DNA of 64,000 bases. Source: a bacterium. GTDB lineage: Bacteria; Omnitrophota; Gorgyraeia; Duberdicusellales; 4484-171. Shown here piece by piece: positions 4,820 through 57,825 of this stretch. Position numbers and translations under genes: made by a program. The number at the start of each line of letters is the position of its first letter. Position 1 is the first letter of the stretch. The notes under the pieces are model-generated. The model had not been told where the DNA came from. It saw only the letters and a program-made list of their open reading frames with translations, and ran no database searches. The stretch spans positions 4,680 through 68,679 of the forward strand of contig JAJYOP010000004.1 in the NCBI GenBank assembly GCA_021796115.1, given 5' to 3'.

Positions 4820-6244
4820 TTATGAGTTTTCACGTGAAAACTGAGCGCGGGTGATCCTTAACTGATAGGCAAAGGTAAGCATGTTTTGCATAAGCCAGTA
4901 AAGAGAAAGCCCAGCAGGGAAATTATAGAAAATAATCCCCATAAATCCAATCATAAAAAACCCCATTCTTTTTTGATCCGGAGAGCTACCTGCAGGGTTA
5001 GCATATTTTTGCTGGAGAAAACCCACCAGCACAATGAGCAGTGGTAAAACATTAAGATAGTTCACTGGCGGCGGTAAGGGCAGTTTAAAGGCGTGATCCG
5101 GTATGGATAAATCTTTAATCCACAAAAAATGAGCATTCTTTAACTCAACAAATTTTAATAATACCTGATATAGTGCAATAATGACTGGGAATTGGAAGAG
5201 CAAAGGTAAACATCCGCCAATCGGGTTAACTTTGTGCTTTTTGTACAGCTCCAGCATTTCTTTATTGAGTTTTTGCGGGTCATTCTGGTATTGTTTTCTC
5301 AAAGCATCCATTTGCGGTTGGAGCTCCTGCATTCTCCGCATGGCTTTTGTGCTCTTCATGGTGAAGGGGAAGAGAATAATATAGACAATTACCGCTAAAA
5401 TAATAATACTTACGCCCCAGTTATGACTGAGGGAATGGAAGAAATAGAGGAGTTTAGCCAAGCCCACGCCAATACTATGGAAAAAACCATAATTTATCAC
5501 GCCTTCCAAGCCTACGGTTTTTAGATTAGCCTCTAAGCACGGGCCAACATATAAAGAAATTTCGGAAACCGGGGGAGGGGCGAGCAAGAAAACCTGGTCG
5601 GAAATCTTTTGCCACTCTACATTATAAGAACCTTTAATCAGCGAAAGGCAAAAATAGTTATTCCGGGTACCGGCAAAATCAACGTGATTTACTGTTTGTT
5701 CCTTAATTTTTTGCGGAACCAGGTGTTGGAAATGGTTATCTTTATAATAAAAAATTTCCTGGGCATTATATCGTTCTAATTTCTTGGGGTTCAAAGTGTT
5801 AGAAAAAATAGTTACATTTGAAGTCGGCGCAGGAAAAAATTTCATCGTCAGTATATTCTTCTTAAAAATAAACTCTTTTTGCTTGCCGGCGCCTGAAAAT
5901 ACAATCCTGTCTTGTTTAACTTCCGTTTTAAACTCTAAATCTTTATCTGCCTGGGAAAAGCCTATATTTTCAGAGAAAAGTTGCGTTTGGTAATCTTTTA
6001 GATAGATAGTTTTTATATAACCGCCTCTGTTGGAATAAGTTATGACAAAATTACCTAGAGTAGCGCTGGAAAGCTCTTCAGGGGTATTGAATGGTATTTC
6101 TTCTTTCTGGGGGGCTTTTTTTTGTTCGGCTACCGTGGGCGGGACAGTTACTGGCTGTTTTGGGGCATATTTTGAGACAAAATACATGTAACCCATTGTG
6201 AATAAAAAGGTTATGAGAAGAGTTTGTATCAATCTTTTTTCCAT
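4820..6244 (-). CDS. yidC: Membrane protein insertase YidC
   Basis: 474 aa. The C-terminal 60-kDa-IMP core is present (GCLPLLFQFPVIIALY, PAGLSLYWLMQN). Confidence 0.9.
   Translation of the reverse strand: MEKRLIQTLLITFLFTMGYMYFVSKYAPKQPVTVPPTVAEQKKAPQKEEIPFNTPEELSSATLGNFVITYSNRGGYIKTIYLKDYQTQLFSENIGFSQADKDLEFKTEVKQDRIVFSGAGKQKEFIFKKNILTMKFFPAPTSNVTIFSNTLNPKKLERYNAQEIFYYKDNHFQHLVPQKIKEQTVNHVDFAGTRNNYFCLSLIKGSYNVEWQKISDQVFLLAPPPVSEISLYVGPCLEANLKTVGLEGVINYGFFHSIGVGLAKLLYFFHSLSHNWGVSIIILAVIVYIILFPFTMKSTKAMRRMQELQPQMDALRKQYQNDPQKLNKEMLELYKKHKVNPIGGCLPLLFQFPVIIALYQVLLKFVELKNAHFLWIKDLSIPDHAFKLPLPPPVNYLNVLPLLIVLVGFLQQKYANPAGSSPDQKRMGFFMIGFMGIIFYNFPAGLSLYWLMQNMLTFAYQLRITRAQFSRENS
4826..4841. promoter_or_regulatory. 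parS-like palindrome 4, overlapping the last codons of yidC
   Basis: GTTTTCACGTGAAAAC. It encodes the FSRENS tail of the yidC ORF. Confidence 0.6.
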
Positions 6245-6284
6245 TTAGATTTTGGCCTCCGCGTTGTTTTTATTTTGAGGTTTT

Positions 6285-6491
6285 TTATTTAACCGGATCG
6301 TATCCACCTTTTGCAAAAGGATGGCACTTTAATATGCGCTTGCATGCCAAGCCAAGGGCCTTGAAAAAGGGGTATTGCGCAAATGCATCCTTAGCATAAC
6401 AGGAACAGGTAGGAACATAAATGCATTGGGAAGGGAAGAGGTGCGCAACTTTCTGGTAAAGAGAAATTAAAAAAATAGCGGCCTTATTCAT
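6285..6491 (-). CDS. yidD: Membrane protein insertion efficiency factor YidD
   Basis: 68 aa with the YidD signature CIYVPTCSCYAKDA...HPFAKGGYDPV. Confidence 0.85.
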   Translation of the reverse strand: MNKAAIFLISLYQKVAHLFPSQCIYVPTCSCYAKDAFAQYPFFKALGLACKRILKCHPFAKGGYDPVK

Positions 6492-6496
6492 ACCGT

Positions 6497-6634
6497 TTAC
6501 ACAGTTAGCCGCTTTCTTCCTTTCTGTCTTCTTCGGTGAAGAACTTTCCTGCCGCTTTTTGTGGTCATTCTAGCGTGGAATCCATGCCTTCTTTTGCCTT
6601 TTATTTTGGTCGGCGTTTTAAGATGTTTTTTCAT
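6497..6634 (-). CDS. rpmH: 50S ribosomal protein L34
   Basis: My own translation gives [45 protein letters not shown] (45 aa). It is below the ORF-track size cut-off. Confidence 0.85.
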
Positions 6635-6675
6635 AGGCAAAATTGTAACATAACCTCGGGGAGTGTCAACTACTT

Positions 6676-6703
6676 TTGACAGAAATTAGCATGGCAATAT
6701 AAA
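6676..6703 (+). promoter_or_regulatory. Sigma70-like promoter facing dnaA
   Basis: TTGACA (6676-6681), 16-nt spacer, TATAAA (6698-6703). This would give dnaA a roughly 330-nt leader containing the family B hairpin. Confidence 0.4.
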
Positions 6704-6710
6704 TGCACTG

Positions 6711-6898
6711 GGGAAATAAACAATTTCCAAGATACAATGACCAAACAATATCCAATAAGCAATCCTTCGGCTACGCTCAGGATTGTCCTGAGCGAGTGAA
6801 ACGAGTCGAAGGGCAAATTCCAATATTCAAACAAAACCAACATTTTGTTTGGTTATTGGATATTGGAACTTGGTTGTATCTTGGTTATTGGTTATTTT
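6711..6898. repeat. Word-hairpin repeat, family B (CCAAT/ATTGG arms around the ctcagg-N5-cctgag core), copy 1
   Basis: The core at 6764-6813 is ccttcggctacgctcaggattgtcctgagcgagtgaaacgagtcgaaggg. It is flanked by complementary ccaa/ttgg-rich arms. Copies lie at 20625-20930 and 27892-28243. Confidence 0.8.
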
Positions 6899-6990
6899 TA
6901 TGAAGCCACAGCGTTTACGGTTACAATAAAATTGTTGCATTGCAAATTTATTGGGGTATAATTTAACCAACTTTCTTTCCAATTAACTGT

Positions 6991-7019
6991 TGTGAATAAC
7001 TTGTGAATCTTGTGAATTA
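6991..7019. promoter_or_regulatory. Three DnaA-box-like 9-mers directly upstream of dnaA
   Basis: TGTGAATAA (6991), TGTGAATCT (7002) and TGTGAATTA (7011). These are the reverse complement of TTATTCACA-type boxes, one or two mismatches from TTATCCACA. Confidence 0.5.
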
Positions 7020-7032
7020 AGTTTTCATTCTT

Positions 7033-8364
7033 ATGGAAAAAGTCTGGCAAGCCTGCAGAGAAAGCTTGAAAATACTCTTAGGGGAAACTTCCTTTGACAC
7101 TTGGATTAACCCTTTAAAATATAAGAAAATTGAAGGGCTATGCCTTACTCTGGAAGCGCCTGACGGCTTCTTCAAAAATTGGGTGGAAACCACCTATTTA
7201 CCCCAGATAAAACAAGCATTAAAAGAGGTGACCCAGAAGGATTTCGAGGTAAATTTTGAAGTCAACCCGAGCCTTTTAAAAAAGGGCACAAACAAAGTTT
7301 TTAAAACTATTGGCGCAACTTTCCAGGAAGAGCCCCAGGATTCAATCAGACTAAATCCGCGTTTTACTTTTGATAATTTTATTGTCGGCGCCTCAAACCG
7401 CATGGCGCATGCTGCTTCGCTTGCTGTCTCAAGTGCGCCGGGCAAATCATACAACCCGCTTTTTATCTATGGGGGCGTTGGCCTTGGCAAAACCCACCTC
7501 ATGCAGGCAATCGCCAACCAAATACTCTCTAAAGCTACCGCAGCAAAAATTAAGTATACTTCTTCGGAAAAATTCACCAATGAACTTATACTGGCGATAC
7601 AAAACCGGTCTACGGAAAAGTTCCGCCAGAAATACCGGAATATCGATGTCCTTTTGATAGATGATATCCATTTTCTTGCCGGCAAGGAAGCTGCGCAGGA
7701 GGAGTTCTTCCACACCTTCAATGTTTTATACGATTACCACAAGCAAATTATTGTTTCTTCTGACCGGCCGCCCAAAGAAATTCCAAAACTAGAGGAGAGG
7801 CTGGTCTCGCGTTTTAGCTGGGGCCTGGTTGTCGACATTCAGCTGCCGGACTTCGAAACCCGCGTCGCAATATTGCGGAAAAAACTTGAAAAAGACCCGA
7901 TTAAAATAGACGAGGACGTTATCACATTTATCGCCAAAAACATAACCACAAATATCCGTGAACTGGAGGGCGCGCTTATCCGGATAATCGCTTATTCTTT
8001 AATAGAAAATAAGCCCGTCAGCCTTGAGCTGGCAAAAGAAATTTTAAAAGATATGGTAAAAGAAATTTACAAAAGAGTAACGCCGGAAGTTATCCTTGAC
8101 CGGGTAAGTAATTATTTTAATCTCGCCAAAGAAGAGCTTAAAAAGGGGAAAAGAAGTAAAAATTTAGTTATGCCCCGGCAGATAGTTATGTATCTTTCCA
8201 GAGAATTGACTGATTTGTCTTTGCCGGAAATTGGCGCAGCCCTTGGAGCAAAACACCACACAACCGTTCTTTATGCCCACAAGAAGGTAAAAGAGGACTT
8301 GAAGGTCAACGAAAAGTTGAGGTTGGCTGTTGACAACATTAAACAAGAAATTAAGAGTTTGTAA
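7033..8364 (+). CDS. dnaA: Chromosomal replication initiator DnaA
   Basis: AAA+ motifs GGVGLGKTHL and LLIDDIHF. The C-terminal DNA-binding region is PRQIVMYLSREL...HTTVLYA. Confidence 0.95.
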   Translation: MEKVWQACRESLKILLGETSFDTWINPLKYKKIEGLCLTLEAPDGFFKNWVETTYLPQIKQALKEVTQKDFEVNFEVNPSLLKKGTNKVFKTIGATFQEEPQDSIRLNPRFTFDNFIVGASNRMAHAASLAVSSAPGKSYNPLFIYGGVGLGKTHLMQAIANQILSKATAAKIKYTSSEKFTNELILAIQNRSTEKFRQKYRNIDVLLIDDIHFLAGKEAAQEEFFHTFNVLYDYHKQIIVSSDRPPKEIPKLEERLVSRFSWGLVVDIQLPDFETRVAILRKKLEKDPIKIDEDVITFIAKNITTNIRELEGALIRIIAYSLIENKPVSLELAKEILKDMVKEIYKRVTPEVILDRVSNYFNLAKEELKKGKRSKNLVMPRQIVMYLSRELTDLSLPEIGAALGAKHHTTVLYAHKKVKEDLKVNEKLRLAVDNIKQEIKSL

Positions 8365-8373
8365 AATATTTTT

Positions 8374-8382
8374 TGTGAATAA
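8374..8382. promoter_or_regulatory. DnaA-box-like 9-mer in the dnaA-dnaN spacer
   Basis: TGTGAATAA, identical to the box at 6991. Confidence 0.4.
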
Positions 8383-8459
8383 AAAACTGGTTTTCTTTTT
8401 TGTTTCTGATACAATTACACTTCTTAACAAACTAGACAGGACATACTATTACAACTACT

Positions 8460-9557
8460 ATGAATTTTATTATTAATAAAGAAGTAATATTAGAGAATCT
8501 ACAGAAAGTTTTGGGACCAACCGCATCAAAGCAAAATTTTCCCATATTAAACAGCGTTCTCATCTCCACCATTGGCAATAAACTCAAATTTATCGCCACA
8601 GACCTGGATGTTACCATTATTTCTTCTTGTGAGGCAAACATAAAAGAGAAAGGCAAGATCGCCGTGCCGATGAAACGGTTTATCTCTATCATAAGAGAAC
8701 TGCCGCTTGAAGAGGTAGCTGTGGAAATGAGCAAGAATAACCTCTTGATAAAATGTGGAAAAATTGAGTTCAAAATAAACACACTAAACGCTTCGGAATT
8801 TCCTCAAATCGAAGAAGAAAAAGAAGCCTCCCTTATTAAAATACACCCAACAACCCTGGAAGAAATGATAAGGATGACTTCTTTTTGTGTTGGCTACGAA
8901 GACGCTAACTATGTTTTAAACGGAATACTATTTGAGATAAACGAGGACACAATAAGTATGATTGCCACCGACGGCAAAAGGCTGTCTTTTGTAAAAAGAA
9001 AGTTACCACCAAACCAGCCAGAGGTAAAAACGAAAATTTCTTTTATTTTACCAATAAAAGCCATAAACGAATTGTATAAACTGATTAAAGACAAAGAAGA
9101 GGATGTTTTTCTTTTTGTTAAAGAAAACCGGGTGGGTTTTGACTTTAAAAGCACGCAGTTTATCGCCAGGCCCATAGAAGGGGAATTCCCTAATTATTCG
9201 CAATATATTCCTAACGAAAACAAAGACAAGCTTTCTGTGGACAGGCAAAAATTTATTCTTGCCTTAAGGAGGGCGGATTTGCTTTCCACTCAAGATTACC
9301 AAGGCGTAAAGCTGGAGTTAAAAAAAGATAGTCTAGTTATTTCCAAATCCACACCCCAACTGGGCGAAGCAAAAGAGGTGGTGGATGCAAGGTATACCGG
9401 CTCAAGCTTTGAAATAGGCTTTAACCCAAACTACATAATCGATATCTTGAAAAATTTAGGCGACAATGAAGTGAGTTTTGAATTTTTCGGCGCAGATAAA
9501 CCGGCCGTATTGCGCAAAGAAGATTTTGTTTATTTGATTCTTCCGATGAAGATATAA
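8460..9557 (+). CDS. dnaN: DNA polymerase III beta sliding clamp
   Basis: 365 aa. It follows dnaA and ends with the ...VYLILPMKI-type C-terminus typical of beta clamps. Confidence 0.95.
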   Translation: MNFIINKEVILENLQKVLGPTASKQNFPILNSVLISTIGNKLKFIATDLDVTIISSCEANIKEKGKIAVPMKRFISIIRELPLEEVAVEMSKNNLLIKCGKIEFKINTLNASEFPQIEEEKEASLIKIHPTTLEEMIRMTSFCVGYEDANYVLNGILFEINEDTISMIATDGKRLSFVKRKLPPNQPEVKTKISFILPIKAINELYKLIKDKEEDVFLFVKENRVGFDFKSTQFIARPIEGEFPNYSQYIPNENKDKLSVDRQKFILALRRADLLSTQDYQGVKLELKKDSLVISKSTPQLGEAKEVVDARYTGSSFEIGFNPNYIIDILKNLGDNEVSFEFFGADKPAVLRKEDFVYLILPMKI

Positions 9558-9708
9558 CGAGCACAATATTTTCCCAAGCGCAAAGCACGCCAGGAAAATA
9601 CCAGTGCGAATAATGAGCCAGCACATTAGTGCGTTGGTAAATTGCCCCCTCCGGGGATTACCCCCGAACAAGCGAAGCAAGCAAACGGGGCGGAGCGCAC
9701 CCTCCTAT

Positions 9709-12808
<3,100 letters not shown>

Positions 12809-12810
12809 TG

Positions 12811-12940
12811 AAAAACTCTAAACTCGAAATTCTAAACTCTAAACAAACCCAAAACTCAAAATCCAAAACCCTAAACGTTTCGAATTTTCTTCTGTTTGTA
12901 GTTTATGATTTGTTACGGAAGAGTTTAGTGTTTAGAGTTT
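12811..12940. repeat. Word-hairpin repeat, family A (CTAAACTC/GAGTTTAG words), copy 1
   Basis: The left arm is aaaaactctaaactcgaaattctaaactctaaacaaaccc... The right arm is ...ggaagagtttagtgtttagagttt. It fills the gyrB-gyrA spacer. Confidence 0.8.
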
Positions 12941-12950
12941 AAAAAAACAT

Positions 12951-15900
12951 ATGCAAGAGCAAACCAACAAAGGGAAAATCATCACCCGCTATCTCGAAGA
13001 GGAGATGAAGGAGTCGTATCTTTCATATTCGATGAGCGTTATTGCCGGCCGCGCTCTGCCGGATATTCGGGACGGGTTAAAACCAGTCCAACGCAGAATC
13101 ATGTACGCGATGCACGAGCTGCATCTGCGTTATAACCAGCCGCACAAAAAAAGCGCAAGAATCGTCGGAGAATGTTTTGTAAAAAATACACTTGTTTCTA
13201 CGAAGCGAGGGCTAACCCCTATCCAGGACGTCCGCAGGGGGGATTTCGTTTTTACCCAGACCGGCTTAAAACGCGTAAGTGAACTTTATTGCATGCCACG
13301 CCGCCCACTCGTAAAGATAGCGTTGGATAATGGGCTCACTAACATCGCTACTCTTTCGCAAAAATTTAAAGTATTCGGTAGCGATTTAAAATTCGCTTTT
13401 AAAGAAGCAAAGGAATTGCAAATCGGCGATTACATTGTTTTAAAAGCTACCTATCCGAACAAGAGTAAGTATGTAAAAACCAAAGGCATCACTGTTAACG
13501 AAAATATCGGATATCTTTTGGGCTTACTTATGTCCGACGGATGGGTGGAGAAAAGCGAAAGAGGATATAACCGTTTAGGTTTTTGCGCCAAAGACTTAAA
13601 TACATTAAAAAAAATACAGGCGATAGTCAGAACAGAATTTAATTTAGAGGAGAATATATTAAAAAAACCAGAAGTTCATTATTTCAGAATAAACAAAAGC
13701 GATGTTAACACGCGATTAATAAAAACCTTTGGCTTAAAAAATCTATCCGCGGAAAATAAATTTATACCTGGCGAAATTCTTCGCTCGCCATCCACGGTTA
13801 TTTATGCTTTCTTATCCGGTTTATTTGAAGGCGACGGAAGCGTCCATAAAAATAGGCAATGCCTTGACTACTCGTCCGTTTCCACCAAGTTAATCTCTCA
13901 ATTGCAAGTACTACTTTTAAGCCTCGGGGTTGTTTCGAGCCGCTATTGCACAAAGCCTAAAATGCACAAATTAAAAGGCAGATTGATAAAAACAAATTTT
14001 CCATGCTTTGCCTTGGAGGTTTCCGGAAGCAACTTAAAAAAGCTTGCGGAAGGGCTGCGGCTGGTCTCCTCAAAAAAAGAGCGCTTAGAAACAAAAACGT
14101 ATGACCGCACGCTTCCTTCCAAATATGACGCCATCCCGTTTTTGGGGCAAGCCCTCTTTAGAGAATTTAGCGAGAAGCATTTAGGTGGAGGATGGTATAG
14201 TAAATCCGAAGGCGGAGAAAAATTTCGTTTAGGCGTGAAGTATGCGAATGGCACAAAGATAAAATACGCAAAAGATTTGTTAGACACAATAAAAGTATAT
14301 AAAACAACAATGGGCGGGTTAAATATTTTAGAAAAAGCCAGGAGAATAGGCTCGCAATATATACCGCTTTTGAAAGAAATTTTGGAAGAAAATCTTTATT
14401 TTATCCCTGTAAAAGAAATAAACAATGCCGGCTGCGATTTTACTTATGATATTGAAGTTGAGAATGACCATGAATTTATTGCTAACGGCATGGTCTCGCA
14501 CAATTGCCTTGGGAAATATCATCCGCACGGAGACCTTTCGGTTTACGATGCATTGGTGCGCATGGCGCAGGATTTTTCGCTGCGCTACCCGCTTATAAAC
14601 GGCCAAGGCAACTTTGGTTCGATAGATGGCGACCCTCCGGCAGCCATGCGTTATTCTGAAGCGCGGCTTTCGAAAATTTCCGATTTCATCCTTCAGGATA
14701 TCGACAAGGACACGGTCAAATTCTTCCCAAACTTCGATAATTCACTTACCGAACCGGAAGTTTTACCGTCGGTTGTTCCGACGCTTCTTATTAACGGCGC
14801 AAGCGGTATTGCCGTTGGCATGGCGACAAATATGCCGCCGCATAATTTAGGCGAAGCTTGCGATGCGCTCGAACATCTCATCGACAACCCGCAAGCCTCG
14901 GTAAAAGAATTGCACAAATTTATCAAAGGCCCGGATTTTCCCACCGGCGCAATTATCTGCGGCAAGGGCGACATCCTGAAAATGTACGAAGAAGGCAAAG
15001 GAAAACTTATCCTGCGCGCCAAATCAACTATCGAACACGAAAAAGGCAAATCGCAGATAATTATTACAGAAATACCTTACCAGCTGAATAAAACCAACCT
15101 TATAGAATCCATCGCTACCTTGATTACCGACAAAAAAATCGAAGGCGTTTCTGATCTTCGCGACGAGTCCGATAAATCAGGCATACGCATACTTTTAGAA
15201 CTTAAACGGGATGTTGAGCCGCAAATAATTTTGAACCAGCTCTATAAACACACAAATCTTGAAACAACTTTTGGCGCGATATTCCTGGCACTGGTTAACC
15301 ATAAGCCGGTTATTCTTACGCTTAAAGAAATGCTGGCGCACCATATCAGCTTCCGCAAGGAGGTAATTGTTAGAAGGACAAAGTTTGAGCTCGACAAAGC
15401 CCAGAAACGCGCCCATATTTTAGAGGGTTTAAAAATTGCGTTAAAACATCTCGACGAAGTCGTTGCTTTAATCAAGAAATCAAAGAATCCGCAAGAAGCC
15501 AAAGAGAACTTGATGAAAAAATTTTCTCTGACCGAAATTCAAGCCCAGGCAATTTTAGAAATGCAACTTGTCCGGCTTTGCGCGCTCGAGCGCGATAAAA
15601 TAGACCAGGAATATATGGAGCTACTCAAGAAAATAGAGCTCTACAATGCGATTTTAGCTTCCGAGCGGAAACAGGAAGAGCTGATCAAGGAAGAGCTTAA
15701 AATTTTGAAAGAACAATTTGCCGACGAACGCCGCACCGAAATCGTCGCACAAAAAGAAGAGATAGAAATCGAAGATTTGATTGTCGAAGAAGATATGGTT
15801 ATCACTATAAGCGGTTCAGGCTATATCAAACGTCAGCCGCTCTCAAGCTACCGGCAGCAGAAACGGGGAGGCAGAGGCGTTACCGCCATGGCCACATCCG

Positions 15901-16727
15901 AAGAGGATTTTGTCGAACATCTTTTTGTTGCTTCAAGCAAAGACACACTTTTAGTTTTCAGTGACGAGGGCCAGATTTATCCAATTAAAACTTATGAAGT
16001 CCCTGTCGGCAGCCGCACCTCCAAGGGCAGAGCGATAATTAATCTTTTGAGCCTGTCAACCAAAGAAAAAGTTACCAAAGTTTTATCGACAAAAGAATTC
16101 GATCCCAAGCGTTTTATTTTAATGACTACCGAACAAGGCGTTATAAAAAGATGCTCGCTGGAACTTTTTGCCAATATCCGCAAAAGCGGAATAACCGCTA
16201 TAACTTTGGAAAAAGGCGATAAGCTTGTCGGCGCAAATATCTGCGAAGACAAAGACGAAGTTATCCTGATTACCAAAAAAGGAAAATCCATACGCTTCGA
16301 AGTTAGCCAAATCCGGCCAACCGGCAGGCAATCCCAGGGCGTGCGCGGAATGAGACTGGCCAAGGGCGATGTAATTGTTGGTATGGCGCTCATCGAGGGA
16401 ACGCTGAAGAAGAACGATTTCTATATTCTAAGTGCAACCGAAAACGGTTTTGCCAAACGCAGCCATATCGAAGAATACCGCCTGCAATCAAGAGGTGGCA
16501 AGGGGATAATTAATATAAAAGTTTCTTCTAAAATCGGTGACGCCAAAGGCGCGATTCTTGTGCAGGAAGCCGACGAAGTCATGTGTATAACTCAAAAAGG
16601 CATACTTATCCGGACAAAAATAAAAGATATCCGCGCCTCCGGCCGCTCAACGCAAGGCGTTAAGATTATTAATCTGGAATCCGGGGATAAACTTTCCACC
16701 ATAGCCCGCATCATTCCTGAAGAATGA
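12951..16727 (+). CDS. gyrA: DNA gyrase subunit A, interrupted by a LAGLIDADG intein
   Basis: The extein junction is SARIVGE|C...SHN|[10 protein letters not shown]. The catalytic Tyr region [10 protein letters not shown] lies downstream of the intein. C-terminal beta-pinwheel repeats are present. Confidence 0.95.
13173..14504 (+). mobile_element. GyrA intein with a LAGLIDADG homing endonuclease domain (444 aa)
   Basis: It starts [13 protein letters not shown]. The LAGLIDADG blocks are [12 protein letters not shown] and [13 protein letters not shown]. It ends [21 protein letters not shown], followed by the +1 Cys. Confidence 0.85.
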
Positions 16728-16902: not shown

Positions 16903-16984
16903 ACAGATAGCAGATAACCGATGTCAGATGTCAGATGGCAGATAAAAATATCTGCCTAACTGTTAGCTGTCATCTGCTATCTAA
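16903..16984. repeat. Word-hairpin (CAGAT/ATCTG words) between the promoter and tRNA-Glu
   Basis: acagatagcagataaccgatgtcagatgtcagatggcagata-aaaa-tatctgcctaactgttagctgtcatctgctatct. Confidence 0.65.
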
Positions 16985-16989
16985 AACCT

Positions 16990-17064
16990 GTCCCCATCGT
17001 CTAGCCTGGTTCAGGACATCGCCCTTTCACGGCGACGGCGCCAGTTCAAATCTGGCTGGGGACG
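16990..17064 (+). tRNA. tRNA-Glu (anticodon TTC); CCA not encoded
   Basis: The acceptor stem pairs GTCCCCA with TGGGGAC. The anticodon arm is cgcc-CTTTCAC-ggcg. The T-arm is gccaGTTCAAATctggc. The discriminator is G at 17064. Confidence 0.9.
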
Positions 17065-17201
17065 TTAATGAGGCAGCAATCTTTTCTGAGCCTGTCCGCT
17101 TCTTGCGGGCAGGCGATAGAAAAGTTGCGTAGCCGAATTAATCCCGCCGAAGTCAGGAGAAATTTTATTAAAAATTTCTCCTGTATATAGCGAAGGCGGG
17201 G
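17065..17201 (+). ncRNA. GA-clamp hairpin motif, copy 1 (unclassified structured element abutting tRNA-Glu)
   Basis: The clamp is TTAATGAGGC (17065-74) ... GCCGAATTAA (17132-41) and encloses a long hairpin. A second stem follows, CCCGCC (17143-48) / GGCGGG (17195-200). The first 77 nt are identical to 25980-26056. Confidence 0.5.
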
Positions 17202-23916: not shown

Positions 23917-24055
23917 AAATTCCAAGCACCAAGCACCAAATTACAAATAAATTCCAATGACCAAAGTTCCAATGTCCTAAACAAAACCTGTTTTGGTCAT
24001 TTGAACATTGGAATTTGAAACTTATTTGGTACTTGGAATTTGGGATTTGGAATTT
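23917..24055. repeat. Word-hairpin, family D (TTCCAA/CCAAG words), copy 1
   Basis: gaaattccaagcaccaagcaccaaattacaaataaattccaatgacc...ggtacttggaatttgggatttggaattt. A related copy lies at 57583-57713. Confidence 0.75.
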
Positions 24056-25753: not shown

Positions 25754-25767
25754 ATACATGTGTAATT

Positions 25768-25900
25768 TAAACTCTAAACTCGAAACCCTAAACTCTAAAC
25801 AAACTCGAAACTCTAAGTTCCAAACCCTAAACGTTTCGTGTTTTCTTCCGTTTGTAGTTTGTGATTTGTTTAGAGTTTCGAGTTTAGGATTTAGAGTTTA
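25768..25900. repeat. Family A word-hairpin, copy 4, ending 7 nt before tRNA-Arg
   Basis: taaactctaaactcgaaaccctaaactctaaacaaactcg...gtttagagtttcgagtttaggatttagagttt. Confidence 0.8.
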
Positions 25901-25907
25901 AAAAAAT

Positions 25908-25979
25908 GTCCCTGTAGCCCAACGGATAGGGCGTTGGCCTCCGGAGCCAAAAATGGCAGTTCGATTCTGCCCAGGGACG
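25908..25979 (+). tRNA. tRNA-Arg (anticodon CCG); CCA not encoded
   Basis: The acceptor stem pairs GTCCCTG with CAGGGAC. The anticodon arm is ttggc-CTCCGGA-gccaa. The T-arm is ggcaGTTCGATTctgcc. The discriminator is G at 25979. Confidence 0.9.
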
Positions 25980-26190
25980 TTAATGAGGCAGCAATCTTTT
26001 CTGAGCCTGTCCGCTTCTTGCGGGCAGGCGATAGAAAAGTTGCGTAGCCGAATTAACCCCGGCGAGCGTCAAAAAATTATGGAACAGAATTTTTTGACAT
26101 CCCCTGCGAGCCGGGGTAATGAGCACGAGTGCAGAAGCAAAACGTGTAGAAATTTCTAAAGAAATTTTTGCTGTATACAGCGAAGGTAGG
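25980..26190 (+). ncRNA. GA-clamp hairpin motif, copy 2, with an extra degenerate module; abuts tRNA-Arg
   Basis: The clamp is TTAATGAGGC (25980-89) ... GCCGAATTAA (26047-56). The second stem is CCCCGGC (26057-63) / GCCGGGG (26110-16). After that comes TAATGAGCACGAGTG...gctgtatacAGCGAAGGtagg. Confidence 0.5.
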
Positions 26191-26253
26191 ATAATGAAAA
26201 CAGACAACAGAGAATCGAAGGACAAGGGATGAAAGACGAAGGACGTAAACAAA

Positions 26254-36629: not shown

Positions 36630-37778
36630 ATGGAACCTTTTATTTCAATTATTGTCCCGGTAAGAAATATGGAGCGCACCATTGGAACGACATTTAATTA
36701 TCTAATGAACGTTGCATATCCGCGCGACAAAATGGAAATTGTCTTTGCCGACGGCGGCTCGACCGATTCCACTATTCAAATCATAAAAAATTATCAAAAA
36801 GACCACCCCTACATTAAACTTGTTGAAATCCCTAAATGTCCTTCACCTGGTTTTGCCAGGACGAAAGCACTTGAAATAGTTAAAGGGGATTTTGTATTTT
36901 TCACCGATGGAGATTGCGCCCCATGCAAGGACTGGATCTATAAGATGCTCGAGGTATTTAAAACCGATTCAAAAATCGGCGCAGTTGGAGGAGAGATACT
37001 CACCTTAAAAGTCGACCCCAACAACCTGGTTGAAATTTTCTGCCAGGCGTTCGGCTTTAACCGCGTTTCCTGGAGGTATGGCAACCTGCAGGAAGGCTAT
37101 TACCCTGATTTAAGCGAGATGGCTCCGACGCAAGTCTGCGGCCACCGGGCTTACTTTTTTGTTACAGCCAATGTTGCCTACCGGAAAGAGGTAATCGATG
37201 CCAACGGCCGAAAATTTTGGGATTTACCCACGGGAGAAGATATCGATTTTGGTATCCGTGCCCGCAAGCAGGGATGGAAATTTTATTTCCTTCCCTCGGC
37301 AAGCGTCGAGCATATGCACAGAGCTGACACAAAAGCGTTGCTCAAAGTTTGGAAATCATACGGTGCGGCACATCCGGTATTGCTTAAGGCTCATGCCTCA
37401 AGTTACATGGAAATAATTTTCCAATTTATCGGCAAATACCCCAACCATCCAATATTGCGCATACCATGTTTCGTTAAAGGATTTATCTATATCGGCAATT
37501 TCCACATCATGAATATTTTCGGATCCCTCTTTTTACTTTTTTTTATCCTGCAATGGGGATTTCCCTGCGCTTTCTGGTTTAAATTACTTACCTGGCTGTG
37601 TCTTGCGATAACCATGGTGGCAAAATTTAAATATTTCAGAATGGTTTTCAATATCGAACCATACGATAAGTGGTTTGAATTTGCCAAGCTGAAATATTTC
37701 ACCAATCTTTATTTTATGATGGGTGGACTAAAGGGCTCTTTTAAAAACGGAACGTTTTGCATTGAACCCAGTTTTTAG
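36630..37778 (+). CDS. Family 2 glycosyltransferase with a C-terminal membrane domain
   Basis: ISIIVPVRN, FTDGDC (the DxD region) and GEDIDFG. It has three or four C-terminal hydrophobic helices. Confidence 0.8.
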   Translation: MEPFISIIVPVRNMERTIGTTFNYLMNVAYPRDKMEIVFADGGSTDSTIQIIKNYQKDHPYIKLVEIPKCPSPGFARTKALEIVKGDFVFFTDGDCAPCKDWIYKMLEVFKTDSKIGAVGGEILTLKVDPNNLVEIFCQAFGFNRVSWRYGNLQEGYYPDLSEMAPTQVCGHRAYFFVTANVAYRKEVIDANGRKFWDLPTGEDIDFGIRARKQGWKFYFLPSASVEHMHRADTKALLKVWKSYGAAHPVLLKAHASSYMEIIFQFIGKYPNHPILRIPCFVKGFIYIGNFHIMNIFGSLFLLFFILQWGFPCAFWFKLLTWLCLAITMVAKFKYFRMVFNIEPYDKWFEFAKLKYFTNLYFMMGGLKGSFKNGTFCIEPSF

Positions 37779-37836
37779 CGTATAGCGGATAGCGTATAGG
37801 TAAAATTTTCGCTAAACGCTCTACGCTATCCGCTAA
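37777..37836. repeat. Word-hairpin (AGCGTAT/ATACGCT words)
   Basis: agcgtatagcggatagcgtatagg-taaaattttcgctaaacgct-ctacgctatccgcta. Confidence 0.6.
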
Positions 37837-37851
37837 TAAATGGAGGATAAC

Positions 37852-46822: not shown

Positions 46823-47034
46823 TAAACTCTAAACTCTAAATGGTTCGGCTCGCCTAAAGACTCGCTTACTATTCTCAAGCGAACTATAGTAGAGCCAAAG
46901 GACAAATCCAAAATTACAAACTCCAAAAACTTGTTTTCAAGTTTGTAATTTGTTATTTGTGATTTGTTTAGGATTTCCCACCAGAAGCGGGTCCGCCAAA
47001 ATATAAAAATCATCGGTGGCGAAAGAATTTAGTG
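46823..47034. repeat. Family A word-hairpin, copy 7, with nested inserts including module X
   Basis: taaactctaaactctaaa...[ggctcgcctaaagactcgcttactattctcaagcgaactatagtagagcc]...gatttcccaccagaagcgggtccgccaaaatataaaaatcatcggtggcg...agaatttagtgtttagagttt. Confidence 0.75.
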
Positions 47035-54885: not shown

Positions 54886-54962
54886 TAATGAGGCCTAACA
54901 TTTCTCCAGGCCTCTATTGGCGCAGGAAAAATGTTAGGCCGAATTACCCTTGAGCGAAGGGG
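54886..54962 (+). ncRNA. GA-clamp hairpin motif, copy 3 (5' leader of the acyl-CoA ligase gene)
   Basis: TAATGAGGC-ctaacattt...aaatgttag-GCCGAATTA-CCCTT-gagcg-AAGGG. It ends 2 nt before the ATG at 54965. Confidence 0.5.
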
Positions 54963-54964
54963 TA

Positions 54965-56494
54965 ATGAAGCACGGTATTTCCATGAACATAAAAGAATTA
55001 CTTATTCAACAGGCCGCAAACTTCCCGCAGAAGGCCGCGATTATTTTTGAGGGTAAAGAGATAAACTTCTTTGACCTCAAAGAAAGAGCCTTCAAATTAG
55101 CCAATTATTTTACAAGCCTTGGCGTTAAAAAGCCAGATAAAATTGCGCTTTTTGCTTCAAACATTCCCGACTCCATATATTGCTATATGGCAACCTATTC
55201 TATCGGCACAACGCTTATCCCGTTCGATTACATGCTTACCGAAAACGAAATCATCCATTTATTGAACCACAGCGAAGCCAAAGTTTTGATTATGCAGCCC
55301 AAGAAAGATATTAATCTGGAAAACATAAGAGAAAATTGCTATAGCCTTAAGGAAGTAATCATTTTAAAAGAACGCCTTCTCAAGGAACCTTTCTTGGATG
55401 ATATTTTAGCGCAAAACTCAAGCGAGCCGCCGCTGGCTGTTTCAAAAGAAGAAGATCTCTCTTCAATATTTTACACCTCTGGTTCAACCGGCCACCCCAA
55501 AGGCGTTATGTTTTGTTACAGCCATTTAGATAATCCGGTTGAAACTATAAACCATTTTCTTGGCGTTTCCGAAAAAGATATATATCTAACCGGCGGGATT
55601 CCTTTTTCCCATGTCGGCGGCCTGAATTATATACTTCTAATGCTTCGTTTTGCTTCAACCATTGTTTTAATGGAAAGATTCCACCCTTTAGAATTTTTAA
55701 AAAATATAGAAAAATATAAAATTACAATATTCTGCATCGTGCCTTCCATGTATGTGGCAATACTGTCGCTTAAAGAATATGAAAGATTTAATTTATCGTC
55801 TTTAAGATACGCAGTTGTTTTCGGTGCGCCGTCGTCGCCGTTACTTCTTAGAAAATTTCATAATGCCTGCCCCAAAGCGATTGTCTTAAATGGATGGGGC
55901 ATGACAGAAACCGCAGCGCCCAACACTTTTTCTCCGCCGGATGAGAGCAAAATATCCAGCATAGGGAAATTTGGATTTAGAATGAAAGCAAAGATTATTA
56001 ATGAAGAAGGCGGAACGCTTTTTTATGGGCAAAAGGGCGAACTTTTAGTCAGCGGCGACGGCGTAATGAAAGGTTACTACAAAGAGCCAACCTTAAGCTC
56101 CGATGCTTTTTACGGAGAAGGGTGGTTAAGAACCGGCGATGTCGCTTATTGTGGAGATGACGGCTTAATCTATCTTGCCGGCAGGATAAAAGACATGATA
56201 AAAGTTTCCGGAGAAATAGTTTTTTCTTCGGAGGTAGAAGAAAAAATTCATCTTCATCCGCAGGTCGCAGAAGTTGCTGTAATTGGCGTAGCTGATGAAG
56301 TGAGGGGAGAGGTTCCAAAAGCCTTTATCGTACCAAAGGAAGGCCAGACTATCGATGAGAAAGAATTAAAAACTTTCTTAAAACAGCACCTCGCGCATTT
56401 CAAAATTCCGCGCCAATACGAATTTGTTAAAGAGCTGCCGAAAAATAGAGTCGGAAAAATCGATAAACAAGCACTTAAAAAGAGTAGAGAGTAG
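54965..56494 (+). CDS. AMP-dependent acyl-CoA synthetase/ligase
   Basis: YTSGSTGHPKGV, GWGMTE, and the C-terminal PKNRVGKIDK. The start is reset from the ORF-track TTG (54950) to the first ATG. The ATG at 54983 is an alternative. Confidence 0.85.
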   Translation: MKHGISMNIKELLIQQAANFPQKAAIIFEGKEINFFDLKERAFKLANYFTSLGVKKPDKIALFASNIPDSIYCYMATYSIGTTLIPFDYMLTENEIIHLLNHSEAKVLIMQPKKDINLENIRENCYSLKEVIILKERLLKEPFLDDILAQNSSEPPLAVSKEEDLSSIFYTSGSTGHPKGVMFCYSHLDNPVETINHFLGVSEKDIYLTGGIPFSHVGGLNYILLMLRFASTIVLMERFHPLEFLKNIEKYKITIFCIVPSMYVAILSLKEYERFNLSSLRYAVVFGAPSSPLLLRKFHNACPKAIVLNGWGMTETAAPNTFSPPDESKISSIGKFGFRMKAKIINEEGGTLFYGQKGELLVSGDGVMKGYYKEPTLSSDAFYGEGWLRTGDVAYCGDDGLIYLAGRIKDMIKVSGEIVFSSEVEEKIHLHPQVAEVAVIGVADEVRGEVPKAFIVPKEGQTIDEKELKTFLKQHLAHFKIPRQYEFVKELPKNRVGKIDKQALKKSRE

Positions 56495-57582: not shown

Positions 57583-57713
57583 AATTCCAAATCCCAAATT
57601 CCAAGCACCAAATAAATTCCAATGTTTCAATAACCAAAATTCCAAATAGTTTTGAACATTGGAAAATTGGAATTTGGAATTTATTTGGAATTTGGTGCTT
57701 GGAGCCTGGAATT
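57583..57713. repeat. Family D word-hairpin, copy 2
   Basis: aattccaaatcccaaattccaagcaccaaataaattccaatg...ggaatttggaatttatttggaatttggtgcttggagcctggaattt. Confidence 0.75.
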
Positions 57714-57825
57714 TAAATATGAACCCCGCCCTTCCAAAATAAACTATATTTATCTGGAAAAATATGGAAAGGTTGGGGCAAGACAAAGGTTTATTAGGAA
57801 AATGTTTTAAAAAAGGAAGGGCGGG

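Follow-up and report, generated by a model that had tools for sequence, protein, structure and literature searches.

We analysed a 64,000-nucleotide stretch of DNA (the window) from a bacterium of the Omnitrophota (GenBank assembly GCA_021796115.1, contig JAJYOP010000004.1, positions 4,680 to 68,679), in which an earlier note had pointed out five copies of a hairpin closed over tandem G-A mismatches. Here we show that this hairpin, named A, is a genuine structure under selection and forms part of a two-hairpin unit, A+B. A+B is best explained as an extragenic repeat dispersed in one Candidatus Omnitrophota lineage, and also in tailed phages of the same environments, which behaves as a new family of mobile extragenic hairpin repeats and not as a conserved regulatory RNA at this locus. 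We class the element as a dispersed structured hairpin repeat and place it in no named family, because what defines the kink-turn (k-turn), the hammerhead, REP sequences, miniature inverted-repeat transposable elements (MITEs), IS200/IS605 elements and attC sites fails in part for each of them. We see about an even chance that A+B is a non-autonomous mobile or recombining hairpin element whose G·A foot serves strand-specific recognition, probably of folded single-stranded DNA.

The window covers the replication origin region, with dnaA, dnaN, dciA, gyrB and gyrA all present. Relatives were compared through orthologous loci, which are fragments fetched from related genomes rather than whole genomes and which carry L numbers below. 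No description of the element was found in the literature searched.

Hairpin A and its copies in the window

The foot of each of the five copies, read from the sequence, is (N)AAU-GA-GRC...GYC-GA-AUU(N), at the places and in the form described before. The pattern AATGAGRC-N20-70-GYCGAATT occurs five times in the window, whereas 500 shuffles that preserve dinucleotides give 0.01 on average and 1 at most; neither 8-mer of the pair, taken singly, is significantly enriched in the window. The minimum free energy fold of every copy is the proposed hairpin with a symmetric 2x2 GA/GA loop (z -4.8 to -10.5). From the base upwards it consists of an outer A-U-rich helix, the GA/GA loop, a 3-4-bp helix and a long stem. 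Two degenerate copies bring the members in the 64 kb to seven. A covariance model was built from 16 aligned host sequences and then run on the window, the relatives and the phage contigs; the bit scores below come from it.

17064..17142, plus strand: A hairpin c1, UUAAU-GA-GGC...GCC-GA-AUUAA; minimum free energy -44.4 kcal/mol, z -7.5; 58.2 bits
16989..17065, plus strand: tRNA-Glu(UUC), its 3' end abutting c1
25979..26057, plus strand: A hairpin c2, directly 3' of tRNA-Arg(CCG); 59.4 bits
25907..25980, plus strand: tRNA-Arg(CCG), its 3' end abutting c2
54886..54946, plus strand: A hairpin c3, in the 5' leader of a gene for an AMP-binding enzyme; 61.9 bits
47903..47948, plus strand: A hairpin c4, short type without B, in the rpmI-rplT spacer; 51.6 bits
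35627..35682, minus strand: A hairpin c5, short type, lying antisense between a pabB-like and a pyrK-like gene; 59.3 bits
35682..35755, minus strand: c5pre, a GCAC-type A, UUAAU-GA-GCAC...A-GUGC-GA; minimum free energy -36.3, z -7.6
9555..9612, plus strand: degenerate GCAC-type A in the dnaN-dciA spacer; 30.8 bits, E 5.5e-4

All window copies are extragenic and overlap coding sequence by a stop codon at most. Both c1 and c2 start one base past the discriminator of their tRNA, and they are 98.8% identical across 83 nt (A plus the first bases downstream). Downstream of a promoter-like site (TTGACT-16-TAAAAT) at ~12-20 nt lies c3, where no terminator-like site is found. The genes on either side of c5 are both on the plus strand. 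The contexts described earlier are borne out, with two copies behind tRNAs, c4 between rpmI and rplT, and c5 antisense to its neighbours. The description of c3 as a leader ending 2 nt before a start codon stands as far as its B stem does end 2 nt ahead of the ATG at 54965, but the conserved start of the enzyme (MNIKELL...) is an ATG 18 nt beyond it.

The enclosed stems had been taken as wholly different in sequence, which does not hold: the long copies are homologous end to end, with a CUUUUUC/GAAAAAG helix and an AAG..GC apex, and c4 and c5 are the same element minus the apical hairpin. The fourth outer pair of c4 is C-G in place of U-A. Immediately 5' of c5 lies c5pre, whose 3' outer strand is replaced by the start of c5. 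The copy at 9555-9612 reads UAAC-GA-GCAC...A-GUGC-GA-AUAAUGAG and is followed by a B-like segment with GCGAAGC. Beside it, the open reading frame (ORF) 9604-9984 upstream of gyrB is too long at its 5' end: the mechanical ORF start is 9604, DciA-like homology with relatives starts at MAEHIK (ATG 9709), and the first 32 codons from 9613 are the repeat element plus the B-like segment.

Two simple explanations of A were discarded. It is not an intrinsic terminator, as no U tract follows A (GAAUUA-CCC) or B (mixed sequence). Small ORFs from the AUG of UAAUGAG run for 39, 21, 11 and 10 codons in c1, c3, c4 and c5 and were rejected because neither their length nor the encoded peptide is conserved, and because the AA variants lack the AUG.

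The G·A foot and covariation

The foot (AAUGAG/CGAAUU) is asymmetric. Two mismatches, G·A or A·A, are stacked in it, and both of its strands have the Y-GA-R context, in which sheared tandem G·A pairs occur. A bulged A usually sits 3-5 bp above the foot mismatches. The stem covariation put forward by the earlier note was tested on three sets of sequences and proved strong, with 15-18 of 21 pairs changing on both sides.

16 host sequences: 83.5% of cells paired; 15/21 pairs change on both sides; 0/500 shuffles reach the score; slid-partner 35-56%
25 sequences: 84.8% of cells paired; 16/21 pairs change on both sides; 0/500 shuffles reach the score; slid-partner 34-52%
41 distinct phage copies: 86.8% of cells paired; 18/21 pairs change on both sides; 0/500 shuffles reach the score; slid-partner 33-44%

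Even the nearly invariant outer AAU/AUU helix covaries, to AGU/ACU in three phage copies and to CAAU/AUUG in others. At the orthologous site in the acs leader, the inner helix is GGCC/GGCC in the window and GCAC/GUGC in L174, a compensatory change. The GA/GA step is held while all adjoining pairs vary. Of the 61 distinct copies, 58 have GA/GA in the 2x2 loop, three have AA/GA and none is complementary there, counts to be read with the fact that the model and one search pattern themselves contain GA. The mismatch is thus never complementary, as had been claimed, but it is not invariant.

A perfect palindrome at L007:13622-13658 (TAATGAGAC...GTCTCATTA / TAATGAGACAAATCA...TGATTTGTCTCATTA) has Watson-Crick pairs in place of GA/GA and is the sole such variant seen. 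It has a short-type 5' arm and lies just 3' of a 703-aa ORF (11504-13615), itself behind a pheT-adjacent A copy.

Hairpin B and the two-hairpin unit

Directly 3' of A and on the same strand, hairpin B (UCCC...GGGA) is found in 55 of the 61 distinct copies, so A is the left half of a two-hairpin unit of ~90-140 nt. The second stem that the earlier note saw after four copies is real, in c1, c2, c3 and c5. Its common form is G-GA-GCGAAGC-GA-C, in which a second tandem GA surrounds a GCGAAGC mini-hairpin, and GCGA(AG) is present in 29 B modules. The DNA oligomer d(GCGAAGC) forms an exceptionally stable mini-hairpin closed by a sheared G·A pair. About half of the copies have TAATGA after B.

17142..17201, plus strand: B of c1, type B1, UCCCGCC-GAAG...CGAA-GGCGGGG with GCGAAGG
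26057..26116, plus strand: B of c2, type B2, CCCCGGC-GA-GC...GC-GA-GCCGGGG, with its own tandem GA
26117..26197, plus strand: decayed third unit, TAATGAGCACG... (GCAC-type A start) plus a B1-like remnant (..CUGUAUACAGCGAAGG..), then TAATGAA
54947..54969, plus strand: minimal B of c3, CCCUUGAGCGAAGGGG, then TAATGAA
35578..35625, minus strand: B of c5, CCCACACCC...GGGUGUGGGG, with a homologue in the B that L174 has in its acs leader

The B1 module of c1 is 88% identical to the B behind tRNA-Arg in L085, and the B2 module of c2 is 93% identical to an inverted B beside tRNA-Glu in L083. At the position of the minimal c3 B, L174 has a full-length B. The decayed unit at 26117-26197 was recognised by eye against the B of c1 and L083:9846.

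Distribution in Omnitrophota and their phages

The earlier note had proposed a covariance search of related genomes, and the model recovers further copies that keep GA/GA or AA/GA. It recovers every copy in the window and matches in the close relatives L083, L085, L174, L175, L182 and L183; the contigs of related Candidatus Omnitrophota contain ~20 copies. The Omnitrophica contig L007 has two matches, one of them adjacent to pheT, and the more distant genome L090 has one copy directly 3' of tRNA-Gly. Model matches number 25 in ~247 kb (window, close relatives and four phage loci), compared with none in 1.26 Mb of non-Omnitrophota loci and almost none in ~0.9 Mb of more distant Omnitrophota loci.

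Relatives were sought with two proteins. Relatives of an endonuclease-Q-like neighbour protein are 70-91% identical to it, and their source names are all Omnitrophota, Omnitrophica or an unassigned 'bacterium'; a metagenome scan with this protein gave few close relatives among the matches listed. A scan of genome contigs with the L20 protein gave, among the matches listed, no relative above 57% identity; its loci were used as a negative control, and L007 came from the same scan.

Pattern scans of viral contigs place the element in ~40 IMG/VR contigs, where the model confirms 53 copies, 41 of them distinct and several per contig. PHROG matches in these contigs to portal, terminase, head-tail adaptor and baseplate proteins identify them as tailed phages. 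The distinct copies total 61. No match to the element was found in GenBank phages. One viral pattern match, L180, lies within a coding region and forms no hairpin, and was set aside as a chance match.

As the earlier note had supposed, the element matches no Rfam family. Rfam 15 at the gathering threshold returns three tRNAs only across the whole window. A search at E<=10 around c1 and c5 gave nothing meaningful, and at E<=0.1 no family matched in 4.2 kb of phage L218, which holds four copies.

Turnover at orthologous host loci

At orthologous loci the unit is absent, replaced, moved or inverted, although the neighbouring proteins are 78-90% identical. The tRNA-Arg trailer takes five different states among relatives in which the neighbouring protein is 82-91% identical, and the tRNA-Glu trailer varies as well.

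tRNA-Arg trailer, window: A+B2 plus a decayed older unit
tRNA-Arg trailer, L085: A+B1, the pair found behind tRNA-Glu in the window
tRNA-Arg trailer, L083: GCAC-type A with AA/GA, plus another hairpin
tRNA-Arg trailer, L171: unrelated hairpins
tRNA-Arg trailer, L173, L091 and all more distant relatives: nothing
tRNA-Glu trailer, window and L183: A+B
tRNA-Glu trailer, L181: nothing
tRNA-Glu trailer, L083 and L182: a duplicated 3' tRNA fragment bearing an inverted A+B in its T-loop

In L083 and L182 the insertion into the pseudo-T-loop lies between GTTC and AAAT, has exact ends (TTAATGAG...GGGG) and shows neither duplication nor loss of target sequence. The acs leader copy is shared by the window and L174 and is gone from L175, which instead has an inverted copy upstream of the promoter, in the dus leader. 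The acs-pnp spacer measures 17 nt in the window and 236 nt in L174 and L175, where it is arranged A(forward)-B'-A(inverted). The rpmI-rplT spacer of L174 is without c4, and the dnaN-dciA spacers of L181-L183 (7-166 nt) are without the element.

Several further observations were made at these loci. In the tRNA-Arg trailer of L171 (L171:4595-4660), CCUGAGCGAACGAAGUGAGUCGAAGG presents 'empty' UGAG-CGAA feet with no enclosed stem, which may be footprints or minimal versions of the element. Partial direct duplications of tRNA 3' ends (17-25 nt), 100-150 nt past the intact tRNA, occur at L083:679-826 and L182:16581-16737 (tRNA-Glu) and at L094:11839-11960 (tRNA-Arg); integrase-type recombination at tRNA genes leaves such a pattern. 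The ~105-nt insert in L094 is a different hairpin-rich sequence. We also considered that the element carries an A->G change of the tRNA-Arg discriminator, which was rejected as L171 and L173 have G without the element.

Orientation and strand asymmetry

About 10 of ~13 host loci have A in sense relative to the genes and three in antisense. Among the 32 assignable phage copies, ~12 are sense and ~20 antisense. In sense copies the stop codon of the upstream gene sits within TAATGAG, and phage L218 has such copies at four successive gene junctions, each with the stop codon in UAAUGAG. Where phage copies are antisense, their bottom strand has GGAG-N-CUCAUUAUG, and the next gene takes its ribosome-binding site and start codon from it; in one case this is an adaptor gene by PHROG. 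Related phages provide filled and empty sites: L194 against L189, L213 and L202; L192 against L206; and L220 against L191.

The bottom-strand motif GG(A/U)G-N-CUCAUUAUG, a Shine-Dalgarno (SD) sequence and start within the hairpin, was seen at L178:4916-4975, L194:5156-5216, L192:1140-1199 and L218:8920-8975. Between L194 and L189, the insertion shifted the native SD by ~110 nt, and the start codon went from GTG to ATG. The indel at L220:8665-8880, compared with L191:3992-4015, comprises the A+B unit and a 43-codon ORF for a hydrophobic peptide (MFVFLLGVAVGVAAILGW...) that is missing in L191.

Folding with DNA parameters makes the hairpins no less significant than with RNA parameters, on either strand. 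In the stems G·U is not significantly commoner than A·C (34 v 22, p = 0.14), and a small-sample version of the comparison gave a similar result. Strand asymmetry is therefore confined to three features: the G·A foot, the bulged A and the motif in B. Since the mismatch is kept on one strand whatever the direction of transcription, it is most simply explained by recognition of that strand. The earlier note had argued from the kept mismatch to RNA. That argument is not supported, given the mixed orientation, the turnover of loci, the equal folding as DNA and the lack of G·U bias; of the RNA-motif reading, selection on the structure stands, while its RNA nature is not established.

A model for the element and its alternatives

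We favour the view that A+B is a mobile or recombining hairpin element because its copies are dispersed, its loci polymorphic, its orientation mixed and its insertion exact-ended without duplication. HUH transposases read a folded single strand at IS200/IS605 ends and at REPs, and integron integrases do so at attC sites. In our model the asymmetric G·A foot and the B mini-hairpin would form a strand-specific recognition surface for a moving or processing enzyme, which would most likely act on a folded single DNA strand, as HUH transposases or integron integrases do. Once inserted, the element would be transcribed within tRNA trailers, leaders and spacers and be tolerated or exploited there: its top strand may supply UAA/UGA stops, and in phages its bottom strand may supply the GGAG-N-CUCAUUAUG ribosome-binding site and start.

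Several points weigh against this view. A Pfam scan of window proteins and precomputed Pfam tables for the loci of relatives showed no transposase or integrase, and a crude IS200/IS605 TnpA signature found none in 3725 ORFs; the missing mobilising enzyme is a weak negative, because only genome fragments were covered. There is no consistent target sequence (left flanks read GGGACG, GATTT, TTTCAC, CTCCTTT or ...CA) and no consistent target-site duplication, including in the filled and empty phage pairs. Copies within one genome are diverged rather than near-identical, and divergence with intact pairing is also expected from selection on each copy for a local function. Host copies are mostly in sense and sit at precise RNA landmarks, behind the discriminators of three different tRNAs and ~10 nt past a promoter-like site. 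The copy-number and strand statistics are small, coming from genome fragments, and the DNA-versus-RNA argument drawn from GCGAAGC is a tentative one.

Some of these points would fit a cis-acting RNA module read by a host factor common with the phages, for example a double-strand-specific RNase, as at the RNase III sites of phage T7, or some other RNA-binding protein that reads the sheared G·A foot, which we regard as possible but clearly less probable. Such a module would serve in the processing of tRNA trailers or polycistronic mRNA, in RNA-end protection or in translation gating, and dispersal would be secondary, through recombination and phage exchange. Strong covariation around a conserved non-Watson-Crick step is in keeping with it, as is the AA/GA loop being the only variant; AA/GA is an isosteric substitute for sheared G·A. 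So are the copies that start exactly one base past the discriminators of tRNA-Glu, tRNA-Arg and the distant tRNA-Gly, the position of c3 and its L174 orthologue just 3' of a promoter-like site, the junction copies of L218 with their stop codons, the antisense phage hairpins that sequester GGAG and AUG, and the ~10 of 13 sense host loci. However, ~20 of 32 phage copies and three host loci are antisense and yet keep GA/GA on the untranscribed-sense strand, position is not conserved at orthologous loci of close relatives, the stems lack a G·U over A·C bias, and Rfam gives no match. By analogy with REPs, the mobile-DNA and RNA readings would not be mutually exclusive; REPs are both mobile DNA and RNA elements.

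Narrower RNA readings fare worse. A k-turn or loop-E protein-binding RNA, bound by an L7Ae-family or similar protein as the earlier note had suggested, appears very improbable. The conserved G·A step, with tandem GA/GA in 58 of 61 copies, speaks for it, tandem 5'-GA-3'/3'-AG-5' beside a G-C pair being the k-turn core. The loop is, however, a symmetric 2x2 one between two Watson-Crick helices with no adjoining 3-nt bulge, which in a k-turn lies just 5' of the sheared G·A pairs and parts a canonical from a non-canonical helix. Both flanking segments are regular helices, and covariation extends to the outer one (AAU/AUU); the bulged A that is conserved is 3-5 bp off, on the other side; and the AGUA/GAA bulged-G pattern is missing. 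Least probable of all is a variant hammerhead-like ribozyme, in which UAAUGAG-[stem II]-CGAA-[B as stem III]-UAAU would stand for CUGAUGAG-[II]-CGAAA-[III]-UH. The order of elements and the G8·A13/A9·G12 tandem do fit a type I layout, and in some copies AUUA after A can pair with UAAU after B. But this UAAU is found in only about half of the copies, there is no stem I partner, all copies have A where the essential G5 would stand, C3 is variable, A15.1-U16.1 is reversed, a covarying outer AAU/AUU helix is incompatible with an open core, and no hammerhead model scores at E 10 in the c1 and c5 regions or at 0.1 in phage L218.

It is also unlikely, though less so, that the element is a folded single-stranded DNA signal that does not move, acting in priming or replication on the lagging-strand template of host and phage like the single-strand origins of rolling-circle replicons. 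This would account for a strand-specific asymmetry independent of transcription direction and for stability as single-stranded DNA. Five of six window loci have the GA strand on plus to the right of the origin, which is the lagging-strand template, and orientation is uniform within phage contigs L218, L215, L192, L220 and L221. On the other side, orientation is mixed within L204, L178, L210 and L197 and in host relatives, such a signal would meet no known need in a chromosome that has a normal primase, and presence/absence polymorphism is not explained by it. A further point in its favour may be the (U)AGCG(A/U) of B, reminiscent of the CS-6 TAGCGT of ssoA.

Beyond the mobile or recombining element that we favour, it is tempting to consider something broader: an undescribed strand-specific class of folded nucleic acid common to Omnitrophota and their phages, whose sheared G·A stack would be read by a putative enzyme. 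This class would be either a new kind of mobile DNA, guided by its hairpins and served by a separate family of transposases or recombinases, or a new protein-binding or processing RNA, copied by phages from their hosts to control translation. We hold this larger claim tentatively and think it rather doubtful.

Comparison with known systems

The element resembles REP and BIME sequences in being made of short imperfect hairpins in many copies, within extragenic and mostly transcribed spacers, as single, tandem or inverted pairs. The A(forward)-B'-A(inverted) arrangement of L174 and L175 is like a REPIN or BIME. Mosaics of a few modules, an asymmetric foot feature and a hairpin kept as copies evolve are further likenesses. 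The two large REP superfamilies are defined by a GTAG or CGTC tag (PMC3733652). In our element GTAG or CGTC lies within 8-10 nt of the ends in only 1-4 of 61 copies. The A hairpins also differ from REPs in being longer (45-80 nt) and more diverged per genome, the unit consists of two different hairpins, and copies are also found in tailed-phage genomes. REPs typically flank a gene for a RAYT, a Y1 HUH transposase, and no such gene was seen in the 64-kb window or the relatives' fragments.

With IS200/IS605 elements and their PATE derivatives, A+B shares two subterminal imperfect hairpins on the same strand, the lack of terminal inverted repeats, insertion without target duplication (at the tRNA-Glu pseudo-T-loop), and repeated insertion at one locus (tRNA-Arg), where units stand in tandem and the older one has been displaced downstream. 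That the mismatch is kept would be explained if single-stranded DNA were recognised strand-specifically. In contrast to these elements, A+B has no fixed tetra- or pentanucleotide target at its left flank, its hairpins reach right up to the ends and are not set 10-20 nt inwards, neither TnpA nor TnpB was found in the DNA scanned, from incomplete genomes, and the small sample shows no strong replication-strand bias.

Like attC sites, the element conserves architecture and not sequence, and it lies at gene junctions, often holding the upstream stop codon. Its build is similar, with an outer helix, an unpaired spacer (here GA/GA), an inner helix, an extrahelical base (here the bulged A) and a variable top. 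As attC sites are recognised as one folded DNA strand, the same might apply here, by analogy only. The RYYYAAC/GTTRRRY boxes are absent, however, and a partial GTTAAT...ATTAAC resemblance has reversed polarity. No integron integrase, attI or cassette array was found in the DNA covered, and the neighbours are housekeeping genes, tRNAs and phage structural genes.

The RNase III hairpins of phage T7 are also repeated at successive operon junctions with a conserved internal loop, as in L218 and also in host operons, and protective terminal stems would remain after cleavage. T7 sites are all sense and immobile, whereas two thirds of the assignable phage copies here are antisense. The pneumococcal BOX, neisserial Correia and enterobacterial ERIC repeats are similarly modular, intergenic and co-transcribed with neighbours, whose signals they affect; here these are stops on one strand and, on the other, an SD with an AUG. 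Long conserved sequences and terminal inverted repeats mark those families, and Correia and RUP have TA duplications. None of them is known to have a conserved tandem G·A foot.

Other candidates were tried and rejected. The element is not a MITE: the unit ends TTAATGAG... and ...GGGG are not inverted repeats, and there is no target duplication at L083 and L182; the 236-nt A-B'-A(inverted) composite of L174 and L175 is MITE-like in shape only. Insertion at a TAATG stop/start junction with a 7-bp TAATGAG duplication was dismissed because the T-loop insertion is without duplication and the filled and empty phage pairs are inconsistent with it; in the dnaN-dciA case the downstream ATG is not the real start (9709). 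An IS91-like GTTC/CTTG target beside the B end is present at only 2 of ~14 loci.

Other features of the window

The origin region (~4820-9984) is laid out as yidC (minus strand), dnaA (7033-8364), dnaN (8460-9557), the DciA-like gene, gyrB and gyrA, and gene orientation flips at ~6.3-7.0 kb. The gyrA gene (12951-16727, 1258 aa) contains an intein with a LAGLIDADG domain, its relatives being 814-822 aa. The gyrB product (9986-12808) has 940 aa, compared with 786-787 aa in relatives, and may carry an insertion or intein too.

Most intergenic spacers hold a second class of hairpins of the lineage, long imperfect inverted repeats with 25-56 nt per arm, composed of short motifs of low complexity. 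An A/C-rich arm faces a G/T-rich one, as in AAATTCCAAGCACCAAGCACC... / ...GGTACTTGGAATTTGG. Many of these repeats immediately precede tRNAs or genes, in L173 they flank a small ORF, and their sequence differs per locus and per relative.

Window, spacer inverted repeats: 23917-24048, 25766-25902, 6714-6897, 37768-37843, 46896-46966, 57589-57714, 12813-12941, 16905-16982
Relatives, spacer inverted repeats: L083:845-985, L083:9655-9760, L173:2466-2915, L183:11010-11100

Implications

The family has an unusually clear signature in its near-invariant tandem G·A foot, GCGAAGC mini-hairpin and strong covariation. For annotation, it is a warning that ORFs may extend into elements, as with dciA, which starts at 9604 in the ORF listing and at 9709 by homology. 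If our reading is correct, the Omnitrophota, an uncultured phylum, and their phages share small structured repeats described in no database. These repeats would serve as a marker tying phage contigs to Omnitrophota hosts, and they would account for the hypervariable spacers by tRNAs and housekeeping genes in otherwise compact genomes. They would also point to an undiscovered partner enzyme that reads a G·A-stacked hairpin, and they offer a natural test case for selection on RNA structure versus folded single-stranded DNA.

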